The notes under the pieces are model-generated. The model made no database searches and had not been told where the DNA came from. It worked only from the letters and a program-made list of their open reading frames with translations. Below are positions 23,177 to 27,717 of a stretch of 64,000 nt of DNA, piece by piece. Both the position numbers and the translations under genes were made by a program. Every line of letters starts with the position of its first letter. Position 1 is the stretch's first letter. Location of the stretch: sequence record MK962752; one strand, 5' to 3'. The stretch comes from Shigella phage JK23.

Positions 23177-23631
23177 AGAGAGTCTCTTAATAGGTTTAAC
23201 ACATCAATAAATTCAGCTTCGGTTAATATTGTATCATCTTTTGTTAGACCACTAGCCATGCTGTGCTTCAAAACTTTTCCTTTCGAGGCGTGTAATGCAT
23301 CACGAAAGCCCTTGTTTTGGATCGCTGCTTCAAAATATGCATTTGTGTATAATTCTTTCCATGCTGGGGAGTATCTTGAAAACGGAACTCCAAGCCAGAA
23401 GAGGGTCCCACGGTCCTGAGCTCTAGCATAAGACCTTCCAGCTTGTTGGGCGGCAAGCCCGGATAACCCAAATATACGACGTTGTTGTTCAGCATTTTTC
23501 ACCTTGCATCCTTGGAGGAATCCTTCAAGACCTCCGAATTGAATACCATCCATGACGAAAGGCCATTGGGCGAAATTACTTAATGCACACGATGGCCATC
23601 TAAAATTGCTTCTAATCTCTAACTCAGACAT
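23173..23631 (-). CDS. hypothetical protein (30.3 position)
   Basis: Track start is TTG at 23637; first ATG at 23631 gives 152 aa. Confidence 0.6.
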   Translation of the reverse strand: MSELEIRSNFRWPSCALSNFAQWPFVMDGIQFGGLEGFLQGCKVKNAEQQRRIFGLSGLAAQQAGRSYARAQDRGTLFWLGVPFSRYSPAWKELYTNAYFEAAIQNKGFRDALHASKGKVLKHSMASGLTKDDTILTEAEFIDVLNLLRDSL

Positions 23632-24784: not shown

Positions 24785-25117
24785 TTATTTTACTACTTTC
24801 CAATGCTGCATGTCAAGTTTACCAACTTTTTTCATCTTCTCAATTAAGCGTTCGGCACGTTGGCGAGCTGTAACATAATACCATTCACCTAATTCATTTT
24901 GTTCAATTTTTCCAACGATTACTGTATTCAATTCATAAATCCAACCAGTAAAGAAATTATGAACTTGAATTGTAAAGGTGAAATCTGTTCCCATACCTTC
25001 TGTTGTTTCTACTTCAATAATATCACCTTCAACTGCCATTAAGAACCACATAGTTTCATCATATTTACCATTGAAGCATTTAGTTTTAACTGCAGCGTTC
25101 AGATTAATCGTTTTCAT
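24785..25117 (-). CDS. hypothetical protein
   Basis: 110-aa ATG ORF. Confidence 0.6.
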   Translation of the reverse strand: MKTINLNAAVKTKCFNGKYDETMWFLMAVEGDIIEVETTEGMGTDFTFTIQVHNFFTGWIYELNTVIVGKIEQNELGEWYYVTARQRAERLIEKMKKVGKLDMQHWKVVK

Positions 25118-25187
25118 TTTATTCTCCTTTGTTTGTGTAAGATAATACTATCACAAAGGAACCATACTGTAAACAACTTTATGCAAT

Positions 25188-25221
25188 CTTTGGAAAATAA
25201 AAAAGGACTCCCGAAGGAGTC
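25188..25221 (-). terminator. rho-independent terminator downstream of basic small protein gene
   Basis: ggactcc-cgaa-ggagtcc hairpin followed on minus strand by a T7-run. Confidence 0.7.
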
Positions 25222-25227
25222 CTCAAC

Positions 25228-25446
25228 TTATGCTTTCTGCTTACCAAAACGAGAAGCATCATCTCGAAGAACCGCACGTGCTCGGCGCATGATCTTCTCA
25301 ACAGTTTGATTGATACGAGAGTTCGACCCACGCTTGTAGCCAGCGCGTTTAGAATCACCAACTTTCTTTTCAACTGCTTTCTTTGCTTTAGCTTGTTTTG
25401 CCATTATAAATTCTCTTTTAAATGAAAATGCAGGACTTATTGGCAT
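25228..25446 (-). CDS. small highly basic protein (Lys/Arg-rich)
   Basis: 72-aa ATG ORF; alternative internal ATG at 25404 (MAKQAKAKK..., 58 aa). Confidence 0.5.
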   Translation of the reverse strand: MPISPAFSFKREFIMAKQAKAKKAVEKKVGDSKRAGYKRGSNSRINQTVEKIMRRARAVLRDDASRFGKQKA

Positions 25447-25802
25447 TGCCTGCGCAAGCCCTCAAGGGGAACATAGGTTTTTTGATATTTAACGACCAGG
25501 ATAACCATAAACCCGTCATCATACCTTATAGCTCTTATCTGTTGCACACCGTTAGCTTAAAGGTTCCGGGTTCGATTTCTCGAGGATAAGATATATACTG
25601 ATGGATATATAGGCCTTGAGGCGTACTCCCGATTGGCCATCACCTCGGGGTAGCATGCACTTGCCGCTATAAGAATAACATTCAAGAGGTACACCGTAAA
25701 ACTGCCGGGGTCTTAAAACTATAATGATTCGCAAATCATTAATCAGACAGTTCGACGGCTCCTCGTTTTAACTTCACACTAAGGCAGTGAATCTCCAATA
25801 AA
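25447..25802 (-). other. ORF-poor, G+C-richer structured intergenic region (candidate non-coding RNA or regulatory element)
   Basis: 356 bp without a convincing ORF in a densely packed genome; perfect 7-bp hairpin aatgatt-cgca-aatcatt (25721-25738), cccga/tcggg stem, GGTTCGATT motif. Confidence 0.35.
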
Positions 25803-26051
25803 TTACTTCAGTGTTACCACAAAGTGACGAACTGCTTTTCGTGCAGCAGAAGCCAGAGGCTTAGCATATTTAAGTTCATCTTTTTCCTGAAGCTCAGCAG
25901 CTAATGCAGTTTGAGCAGGATTCAGATGTTTGAAATAACGCAGGATTTCAAGAGCTTCGGCTTCAACATCAATAGATGCGCCATAGTTTTCGTGACCATT
26001 ATTCCATGCGTTTCGTTGCAGTTCAAGAGCGTGTTGTAATTGTTTAATCAT
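25803..26051 (-). CDS. rIII: rIII lysis-inhibition accessory protein
   Basis: 82 aa; size and position (upstream of 31 block) as in T4. Confidence 0.8.
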   Translation of the reverse strand: MIKQLQHALELQRNAWNNGHENYGASIDVEAEALEILRYFKHLNPAQTALAAELQEKDELKYAKPLASAARKAVRHFVVTLK

Positions 26052-26198
26052 TTAAAAATTCTCGTTAGAGATTAAAACTCGGTAGTCACGTTCTTCTGAA
26101 TTTCATCTTCTTTCGACAGATCTCTCAGTTGTAGACTACCACATAGAATTGTTCGGTTAACTTATTATTCCGACACCAAATTCATATTATTATTTATA

Positions 26199-26534
26199 TC
26201 ACTTATAAAGACACGGAATAGCTTTATAGTGACAGGTAACGAATTTTTGTTTAATTTCTTTTGGCTGCTTAAGACCCAGAGCTACAAAAGGGTGTGGAAC
26301 GTTTCGAATTTGACCAACTGGAAGAGAAGTCAAATCACCAACTTCACAGAAACCTTCAGGAACATCAGGACCGACAGAGTGAACTACACACAGTTCAGGA
26401 ACTTCACCTTGAACACGTTTACCGATAATAAGTCCTGATTCTGTAACTTCTTCATCACCGGCTTGTGCAGGTTCAGAAACTAAAATAACATATTCACCGA
26501 CAGCACGAATTGGTAGCTGTTGTACTTCAGACAT
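26199..26534 (-). CDS. 31: gp31 co-chaperonin (GroES analogue for capsid folding)
   Basis: 111 aa; matches T4 gp31 size and sequence. Confidence 0.9.
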
Positions 26535-26899: not shown

Positions 26900-27136
26900 T
26901 TATTTACCTATTACAGTTTTAATATGAGTTGTTCCACGTTCTTTAAGAGTGGAAAGTAATTTTTGGCATTTTTCTAAATCAGATTTCCAACTATGTGGTC
27001 TATCAATACAAACCCAGTTTGACTTATAATACTGCTTCCATTTAGAGAAAAAATACTTCTTATACTCTACAGCAAATGAAATGTTCTCGTTGGAATAAGA
27101 ACTAATTGCTGTGAGCTGTACCAAACGAAATTTCAT
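26900..27136 (-). CDS. hypothetical protein (31.2 position)
   Basis: 78-aa ATG ORF. Confidence 0.6.
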   Translation of the reverse strand: MKFRLVQLTAISSYSNENISFAVEYKKYFFSKWKQYYKSNWVCIDRPHSWKSDLEKCQKLLSTLKERGTTHIKTVIGK

Positions 27137-27717
27137 TATTCACCACAGAATTCGTTGATATTTTCCCAGTTTAACTTATTTAAGTTTTTCTTAGGAACAT
27201 TAAACACTTCAATACCTGCATTTCGCAGAATATCATCCCAGCCAGGTTTATTTTTATCGTATGTTTCACAATAAACCAGCTTTTTAATTCCAGATTGAGC
27301 TATTGCTTTTGCACAATCTGGGCAAGGAGAAAGTGTTACATACATAGTAGCACCTTCAATTGAAGAACCGTTTCGTGCAGCAAACAAAATCGCATTTAGT
27401 TCAGCATGAATTTCATTTTTAGACGACCATTCAGAGTGCGCGCTACGATGTTCTTTCGCCAATACAAAACGATCAGTTGAACCAAACGATACACATTCAG
27501 GCTTATGACCTTGAATGATAGTATGTTTAGGCTTATTCAGCAACCAACCTTGCTCAGCAGCATAATCACAGCAGTTCACACCACCTGCAGGTGAACCATT
27601 ATATCCAGTAGAAATAATACGTCCATTCTTTTCAATTACTGCTCCTACTTTCCAGGAGCAACATTTTGATTCTTGTGATACTAAATATGCAATTTGAAGT
27701 ACTGTACTCGCTTTCAT
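27136..27717 (-). CDS. cd: dCMP deaminase
   Basis: 193 aa; zinc-binding HAE ... PCxxC cytidine/dCMP deaminase motifs. Confidence 0.92.
   Translation of the reverse strand: MKASTVLQIAYLVSQESKCCSWKVGAVIEKNGRIISTGYNGSPAGGVNCCDYAAEQGWLLNKPKHTIIQGHKPECVSFGSTDRFVLAKEHRSAHSEWSSKNEIHAELNAILFAARNGSSIEGATMYVTLSPCPDCAKAIAQSGIKKLVYCETYDKNKPGWDDILRNAGIEVFNVPKKNLNKLNWENINEFCGE

Follow-up and report, generated by a model that had tools for sequence, protein, structure and literature searches.

A structured RNA element between rIII and 30.9 in Shigella phage JK23 and other T4-like phages

Shigella phage JK23 (record MK962752) has a T4-like genome of the genus Tequatrovirus, and the window analyzed here comprises 64,000 nucleotides (nt) of that genome. 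Between two of its genes, rIII and 30.9, lies a 151-nt element (25524-25674, minus strand) that, judging from its sequence and those of its homologs, is very probably a functional structured RNA. The original prediction for this region had flagged 356 bp (25447-25802) poor in open reading frames (ORFs) and proposed that a structured non-coding RNA might be encoded there; compensatory changes across T-even-like genomes bear this out, for the central ~150 nt only.

T-even phages are among the best-studied genomes, yet neither Rfam 15 nor the GenBank annotations that we inspected include this fold, and the literature searched contained no description of the RNA. It apparently represents an undescribed structured RNA family of T4-like phages.

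Results

Extent and fold of the RNA

In an alignment of eleven diverse copies, homology starts and stops exactly at a helix, P1, which is variable in sequence yet complementary. A covariance model (R1) places the core of the element at 25528-25670 on the minus strand, with a score of 170 bits (E = 9e-38), as its sole match in the window. The fold is a four-way junction of P1, a P2-P3 arm, a P4 hairpin and a P5-P6-P7 domain; it includes a GNRA loop, and the terminal loops of P3 and P4 are joined by a kissing interaction of 6 bp. Its parts are listed below, with the number of base pairs that show compensatory changes.

25524-25674, minus strand: whole structured RNA element, 151 nt (core 143 nt, 25528-25670)
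25666-25670 / 25528-25532, minus strand: P1, AUAGC / GCUAU; 4 of 5 pairs compensatory
25671-25674 / 25524-25527, minus strand: extension of P1 to 9 bp in JK23, UCUU / AAGG
25612-25665, minus strand: P2-P3 arm
25663-25665 / 25612-25614, minus strand: P2, GGC / GCC
25655-25662 / 25615-25620, minus strand: internal loop between P2 and P3 (8x6), AAGUGCAU / CUCAAG; almost invariant
25643-25654 / 25621-25636, minus strand: P3; 6 of 12 pairs compensatory
25637-25642, minus strand: L3 loop, UGAUGG (consensus YGAUGG)
25592-25611, minus strand: P4 hairpin, stem 25605-25611 / 25592-25598; 3 of 7 pairs compensatory
25599-25604, minus strand: L4 loop, CCAUCA (consensus CCAUCR)
25637-25642 with 25599-25604, minus strand: kissing interaction of L3 with L4, 6 bp
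25533-25591, minus strand: P5-P6-P7 domain
25585-25591 / 25533-25539, minus strand: P5; 3 of 7 pairs compensatory
25580-25583 / 25572-25575, minus strand: P6, UCGA as first strand, GAAA loop at 25576-25579; 3 of 4 pairs compensatory
25567-25571 / 25546-25551, minus strand: P7, with a 15-nt loop, GAACCUUUAAGCUAA, at 25552-25566; 1 of 5 pairs compensatory
25540-25545, minus strand: linker GCAACA; invariant

In the consensus model the P2-P3 arm bends back, and six pairs connect its loop to that of the short P4 hairpin. The cccga/tcggg stem noticed at the outset is indeed present (25628-25632 / 25645-25649) and is part of P3. Within the P5-P6-P7 domain, GCUAACGGUG and GCAACAGAU are invariant or nearly so, and the P6 loop reads GAAA in 18, GUAA in 3, UAAA in 3 and UAAU in 1 of 25 distinct sequences.

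A centroid fold of JK23's own 151 nt recovers helices P1-P7. The folding-energy z-score is -2.0 for exactly these 151 nt and -0.6 for a 176-nt stretch on either strand; the structure rests on covariation, not on folding stability, and energy alone is weak evidence.

Covariation and strand

RNAalifold returned 45 pairs, 19 of them with compensatory changes. When the helices were written by hand for 10 sequences, 97.3% of cells were paired and 18 of 44 pairs were compensatory, against 2-5 with the partners slid. R1 recovered 43 copies, 25 of them distinct, from at least ten T4-like genera. Once the kissing loop is counted in, the 25 distinct sequences supply 1223 cells, of which 99.3% are paired, and compensatory changes occur at 23 of 49 pairs; slid partners give 2-3 such pairs, and none of 500 shuffles reaches the observed values. 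The complementarity and covariation of L3 with L4 emerged from a mutual-information scan of unpaired columns. This kissing helix is paired in 100% of the 25 sequences, with compensatory changes at three of its six pairs (CG19/UA6, GC20/UA3/AU2, GC23/AU2).

The same data are asymmetric between strands. G-U combinations occupy 54 cells and A-C combinations none; read in the sense direction the alignment has 99.3% of its cells paired, read in the antisense direction 94.9%. In 21 of the 25 sequences, P6 is capped by GAAA or GUAA. We assign the RNA to the minus strand because G-U cells are present, A-C cells are absent and the P6 loop is of the GNRA type. This is also the strand of all genes around the rIII-30.9 gap.

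Several further motifs were considered and set aside. Candidate pairings for other tertiary contacts (a pseudoknot of the P7 loop or of UGCA motifs) are unsupported by variants, in columns too invariant for a test; on inspection, the consensus of the P2/P3 internal loop does not fit a kink-turn. A tRNA-Lys anticodon mimic, CUUUAAG in L7, lies in the most variable part of that loop, and the positions of a Shine-Dalgarno mimic, GAGGUGAU in P3/L3, covary with L4; both were ruled out.

Coding potential

Because T4 gene 30.9 encodes 58 amino acids (aa), its start in JK23 is placed at the ATG at 25404, which leaves a non-coding gap of 398 bp (25405-25802); the equivalent gap in T4 is 244 bp. The ORF-poor gap of the original prediction is thus real and non-coding, but larger than 356 bp and not one unit. 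Its only ORF of at least 60 aa is, as had been stated, TTG-initiated (25552-25734, minus strand), with no Pfam or PHROG match. The region had also been said to lack any ATG-initiated ORF with a ribosome-binding site; it is ORF-poor, but ATG ORFs exist at 25418-25522 (minus strand, 34 aa) and 25422-25589 (plus strand, 55 aa), the former broken by a 1-nt indel in JS98 and hence not conserved.

Hypothetical proteins have been annotated over the element in four records, MK327939 (vB_EcoM_G4498; G4498_00221/00222), PV402692 (TNG87), PP597396 (COW86c_228) and MN044033 (Marfa_223), and the region is a recombination mosaic. Both facts would suit a feature that acts as protein-coding sequence or at the level of DNA, such as a small ORF, a recombination or homing site, or an origin. 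Yet no open frame spans the element: in each of the 10 homologs, every one of the six frames is interrupted by one or more stops. Variable sites are distributed 23/23/21 by codon position, showing no codon periodicity, and element lengths of 140, 143, 144 and 152 nt differ by non-multiples of three. Neither the 60-aa nor the 36-aa ORF over the region matches Pfam or PHROG, and the annotated coding sequences, which differ in frame and extent between records, are almost certainly spurious. These results rule out a small protein-coding gene, and no conserved small coding frame was found. For the DNA-level alternative, the excess of G-U over A-C cells (54 to 0) and the GNRA loops indicate selection on one RNA strand and not on duplex DNA, so that we assign this whole class of explanation a negligible probability.

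Distribution and conservation

Megablast with the flagged 356 bp, which are 100% identical in Escherichia phage vB_EcoM_G4498 and others, matched 907 phage records, 179 of which cover the full query. T4 and many other phages match in two pieces with the middle missing, and Klebsiella and Enterobacter phages match the middle only, at 91-96% identity. An alignment with T4, Klebsiella phage TNG87 and Enterobacter phage PG7 delimits a ~150-nt block that is absent from T4 and almost identical in TNG87 and PG7, whose flanks cannot be aligned. A sensitive search with this block alone found 408 places in 407 phage records, with 80-100% identity, so that about a third of the 1116 phage records bearing rIII carry the RNA. 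The carriers, T4-like phages of Enterobacterales, include a subset of Tequatrovirus, as well as Dhakavirus, Moonvirus, Marfavirus, Karamvirus, Kanagawavirus, Roskildevirus and Kagamiyamavirus, and further Klebsiella, Serratia and Erwinia phages whose records assign no genus.

With filters off, R1 detected the element in Kanagawavirus Q7622 and found none in T4, RB32 or slur07, nor downstream of rIII in Tegunavirus phiR1-RT, Bragavirus phiP4-3, Acinetobacter phage PhT2 or Winklervirus X20. The element is missing from T4, T2 and RB32, and T4 differs by a clean deletion of exactly this block. In all 43 loci examined (31 extra loci plus 12 mapped, namely JK23 and 11 annotated records), the element lies between rIII and 30.9, with rIII 7-133 nt upstream and 30.9 72-206 nt downstream; three loci are truncated at one end. 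A dispersed mobile element, of the kind of miniature inverted-repeat transposable elements, is ruled out by the single copy, the same locus in 43 of 43 cases and the lack of a duplication at the T4 empty site. Two records labeled as Campylobacter phages, MG065639 (A150) and MG065689 (A110a), contain T4-like rIII-region DNA with 97-100% identity to this Tequatrovirus, which suggests mislabeling or contamination.

The RNA is usually more conserved than the genes that flank it. Nucleotide identities to JK23 for the RNA and for rIII are, respectively, 100% and 84% in JS98, 93% and 74% in CF1, 90% and 71% in PG7, 84% and 70% in Serratia phage 4S, and 77% and 67% in Cronus; the sole exception is EcS1, which has two small insertions. 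Junction and loop nucleotides are almost invariant across genera, with flanking proteins down to 45-89% identity, and invariant columns make up 31 of 45 unpaired positions versus 46 of 98 paired ones. The element is under strong purifying selection on helices and single-stranded nucleotides. The earlier suggestion that a remnant of a degraded element might lie here is accordingly rejected: this is an intact element, which T4, T2 and RB32 have lost.

Comparison with known RNAs and sequence collections

Rfam 15 (cmscan of 25000-26300, E<=10) yielded no match within 25405-25802, so the covariance-model check recommended with the original prediction identified no known family in the gap; at four divergent homologous loci (E<=1) nothing matched at the element. 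ARAGORN finds no tRNA gene in the whole window. The TpsiC-like motif that had been noted, GGTTCGATT, is present on the plus strand at 25569-25577, opposite the RNA; it is the complement of the P6/P7 strands and belongs to no tRNA, a coincidence, and a tRNA-like element was rejected.

Comparable RNAs of T-even phages are rnaC and rnaD of T4 (stable RNAs species 1 and 2), which are ~120-140 nt long and co-transcribed with their neighbors. In the T4 record they appear simply as small, stable RNAs with no assigned function. In contrast to the present RNA, they sit in the tRNA cluster and have tRNA-like 3' ends, and T4 has both yet lacks the element described here; R1, with filters off, gave nothing above 7.5 bits in T4 69500-74500.

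Searches for host mimicry with blastn gave nothing in 5,426 complete E. coli genomes, and plasmids gave only two 30-nt chance matches to the element. Bacterial, viral and metagenome collections were searched through pattern-seeded subsets. Among 185,579 bacterial species genomes, 44 pattern matches were obtained, including three Serratia loci, and all fail the covariance model; metagenomes gave 73 pattern matches, of which 60 are chance and 13 are contigs with the element, and IMG/VR holds it in 18 contigs. Looser patterns in IMG/VR returned only chance matches inside coding sequence. These searches turned up no copy of the element beyond T4-like phages.

Mosaic organization of the rIII-30.9 gap

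On either side of the RNA, the gap of JK23 contains the following features.

25675-25802, minus strand: rIII-proximal module, outside the RNA; common to T4, T2 and JS98, absent from RB32
25723-25740, minus strand: 7-bp hairpin AAUGAUU-UGCG-AAUCAUU in the rIII-proximal module, with a UNCG-type loop in transcript sense
25700-25695 (TTTACG) and 25677-25672 (TATTCT), minus strand: early-promoter-like sequence with a 17-nt spacer, read from the sequence
25405-25523, minus strand: 30.9-proximal module, outside the RNA; common to T4 and RB32

The 7-bp hairpin was thus correctly noticed, at coordinates (25721-25738) that need shifting to those above, and it lies outside the RNA in a module that T4 also has. 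In slur07 the loop of the equivalent hairpin is reverse-complemented (CGCA), as inversion of a palindromic hairpin would give. The 30.9-proximal module comprises a hairpin plus GUUAAAUAUCAAAAAACC motif, a CCCCUUGAGGGCUUGCG motif, a GCAGG...CCUGC hairpin and the 30.9 ribosome-binding site.

Across genera, the gap is assembled from modules in differing order, among them a hairpin plus GUUAAAUA...CAAAAC, the CCCCUUGAGGGCUUGCG motif and a UUGCC-GNRA-GGCAA hairpin. The RNA precedes all of these in JK23, JS98, CF1, PG7 and Cronus; in Marfavirus, TNG87, Serratia phage 4S and Q7622 the hairpin plus GUUAAAUA lies upstream of the RNA and the CCCCUUGAGGGCUUGCG motif after it, with the GNRA hairpin also upstream in Q7622; and in COW86c and EcS1 a CCCCUUGAGGG-type motif is upstream and the hairpin motif downstream. 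The sequence directly 3' of P1 is unrelated between genera and different in nearly every one. Within Tequatrovirus alone, the gap occurs in four states: with the RNA (JK23), with a 47-nt insert (T2 and slur07), empty (T4), and empty with the rIII-proximal module missing as well (RB32). The 47-nt insert, unrelated or degenerate, sits at the exact RNA junction and completes a perfect T4-type early promoter, TTTACG-N17-TACTAT; it faintly resembles the 5' and 3' ends of the RNA and might, on that resemblance, be a deletion remnant.

Short conserved intergenic modules of hyperplastic regions, linked to indels and reshuffling, have been described in T4-like phages as promoter-early stem-loop (PeSL) cassettes (PMC2839356, PMC4122927), and the rIII-30.9 gap behaves as such a mosaic. 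The element itself differs from a PeSL, which is a simple stem-loop followed by a sigma-70-like promoter: with seven helices and a pseudoknot in 143 nt, and no TTTACW-N17-TAYWAT (the T4/PST early-promoter consensus, PMC4122927) inside, it was rejected as a cassette of this kind. A PeSL-like unit does occur just upstream (25672-25740), composed of the 25723-25740 hairpin and TTTACG-N17-TATTCT. This promoter-like sequence falls below the threshold of the sigma-70 scan. It runs up to the 5' boundary of the RNA, where it overlaps with the extension of P1, and a start site derived from it would probably fall inside P1.

Discussion

Alternative functions for the element

The element is always upstream of 30.9, on the same strand and with no terminator in between according to the terminator scan, a layout that would suit a cis-acting, riboswitch-like leader, in which an aptamer in the 5' untranslated region of 30.9 senses a metabolite or protein and switches the transcription or translation of that gene. 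By analogy with purine and lysine aptamers, the multi-helix junction, the invariant junction nucleotides and the loop-loop contact would also be in keeping with such a function. However, the RNA is separated from the start of 30.9 by 72-206 nt of unrelated or reshuffled modules, and no conserved sequence overlaps P1's 3' strand or comes after it, hence no alternative pairing is available; nothing 3' of P1 could be recognized as the expression platform of a riboswitch class. In Moonvirus CF1, Karamvirus PG7, Erwinia phage COW86c, Roskildevirus Cronus and Kagamiyamavirus EcS1, the element lies 7-23 nt past the rIII stop, with other modules before 30.9. T4 and RB32 keep an identical 30.9 leader without the element, and no riboswitch in Rfam matches. 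We regard a leader of this type as improbable, and a classical riboswitch for 30.9 as less likely than a regulatory or decoy RNA. The long regulated leader offered in the original prediction is likewise disfavored for want of a conserved expression platform after the RNA, whereas its proposal of a structured RNA stands.

In architecture the RNA resembles lysine and purine riboswitch aptamers: a closing P1, a multi-helix junction with near-invariant junction nucleotides, and two neighboring arms tied by Watson-Crick loop-loop pairs (6 bp in the phage RNA). As in the lysine aptamer, where it is P2, a long arm must bend at a conserved internal loop. Loop-loop locking and the bend in lysine P2 are established aptamer features. 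Unlike these aptamers, the phage RNA has no Rfam similarity, no expression platform and a variable distance to the downstream gene, and it is found in a lytic phage upstream of 30.9, a gene without assigned function.

The proximity to rIII in several genera (7-23 nt after its stop) and the compact pseudoknotted fold could instead point to an element of RNA processing or stability, either a new self-cleaving ribozyme or a nuclease-resistant fold that would set or protect the gp31-rIII message at its 3' end or the 30.9 message at its 5' end. Small ribozymes commonly reside in phage intergenic regions, a point in favor of the ribozyme version, and T4 early mRNAs are heavily processed (PMC9409239), which would favor processing more generally. 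On the other hand, no known ribozyme family in Rfam matches even at E<=10, simple hairpins suffice against bacterial 3' exonucleases and would leave the invariant loops unexplained, and in other genera the gap to rIII extends up to 115-133 nt. A processing or stability function therefore seems to us quite improbable.

A self-contained structured RNA that is carried in a transcript without an attached platform and works independently of distance also recalls the put RNA of HK022 and the EAR element. On this model, the nascent RNA would bind RNA polymerase and promote processive readthrough into 30.9 and the 30.x genes; the platform-free, distance-insensitive and orientation-dependent action of such RNAs would fit the modular layout, with its fixed orientation and variable distances, and there are hairpins and U-rich tracts between the element and 30.9 and a strong terminator after it. 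The argument is purely one of analogy: in the Rfam search the element resembled put and EAR neither in sequence nor in structure, the hairpins before 30.9 fail the terminator scan, and T4 expresses 30.9 without the element. Antitermination would accordingly be very improbable.

A structured RNA with an autonomous mechanism

The reading that we favor joins the structured RNA to an autonomous, partner-binding mechanism. The mechanism taken by itself is tentative, with rather less than an even chance; as a joint blend of structure and mechanism, we consider the reading likely. The RNA is predicted to be made as part of the rIII-to-30.9 transcript. In T4, early, middle and late promoters serve rIII (PMC9409239), and the terminator scan finds no strong terminator-like site between the RNA element and the end of 30.9. 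On that transcript the RNA could constitute an autonomous accessory domain; its partner would be one specific, conserved host protein or RNA, or a small molecule, and, expressed early, it may serve as a regulator or a decoy, whether it stays within the mRNA or is cut out of it. One specific, conserved partner is suggested because loops and junctions are invariant across hosts from Escherichia to Erwinia, and a self-working domain is preferred to a 30.9 riboswitch because there is no expression platform and the neighbors are shuffled.

A number of observations weigh against this reading. The RNA is known here from genome sequences alone, and the covariation counts come in part from a model-fitted alignment (A5), with which independent MAFFT and RNAalifold analyses agree. 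No promoter or terminator consistently flanks the element, and a free, stable RNA would therefore need processing. The strict rIII-30.9 locus and the fixed orientation fit a role in cis on rIII or 30.9 equally well. The blastn searches of E. coli genomes and plasmids described above revealed no similarity to a host RNA. T4 and most Tequatroviruses lack the element, and its function is therefore dispensable in laboratory hosts. Finally, where a Dhakavirus is 100% identical to JK23, the reason could be that the intergenic cassette was recently exchanged whole by recombination, and not constraint.

A bolder and rather unlikely version of the same idea is that the element founds a new functional class of RNA carried by T4-like phages, whether a ligand-sensing or catalytic RNA or an early decoy of a conserved Enterobacterales factor, e.g. 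a defense or RNA-turnover protein. Since L3 and L4 are complementary, the kissing loops could, on this version, also act between molecules and build RNA-only multimers, and the RNA would have gone unnoticed for decades because T4 and T2, the reference phages examined, have lost it.

The combination of a four-way junction, a covarying kissing loop and near-invariant unpaired nucleotides is a signature of specific binding or catalysis. Pairs with and without the element within one genus (JK23 versus T4, T2 and RB32) offer natural deletion controls, and the carriers include Klebsiella, Enterobacter and E. coli phages of the therapeutic type. At minimum, ~400 phage records are open to re-annotation; at best, if the bolder proposals were true, the element would be a new riboswitch, ribozyme or anti-host RNA.

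Neighboring genes and base composition

The genes and terminator around the gap are as follows.

27136-27717, minus strand: gene cd
26199-26534, minus strand: gene 31
25803-26051, minus strand: rIII, lysis-inhibition accessory protein, upstream neighbor of the RNA (PHROG 1457, E 5e-44; T4 annotation)
25228-25404, minus strand: gene 30.9, 58-aa basic protein (PHROG 1427, function unknown, E 2e-31; T4 annotation NP_049823)
25203-25224, minus strand: intrinsic terminator after 30.9, the sole strong terminator at the locus (terminator scan)

A 72-aa ORF that starts at an upstream ATG (25228-25446, minus strand), named ORF 31.-2 or 30.9 in earlier T4 and RB32 records, overextends 30.9; the 58-aa start at 25404 is the one kept across genera, and its product is very basic. 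Just after 30.9, the only notable Rfam match of the region, a sub-threshold one to Atu_C8, a small RNA of Rhizobiales (25189-25272, minus strand; 31 bits versus a gathering score of 50), was rejected as homology, the match being the GC-rich terminator hairpin and U-tract.

The rise in G+C content that had been remarked upon holds relative to the nearest A/T-rich flanks (0.445-0.45 in 25500-25799 versus 0.30-0.33) but is not unique to the gap, as the adjoining 30.9 also reaches 0.45 and 23400-23599 reaches 0.49.

Five 30.9 leaders from Klebsiella, Enterobacter and Citrobacter phages contain a long GGGAGC...GCUCCC hairpin, which has three CGRAAGAA repeats (CCGAAAGAAC, GUCGAAAGAAG, CUCGGAAGAAC) inside it and may be a second structured or protein-binding element; at that place, the leaders of JK23 and T4 have the different, shorter GCAGG...CCUGC hairpin.

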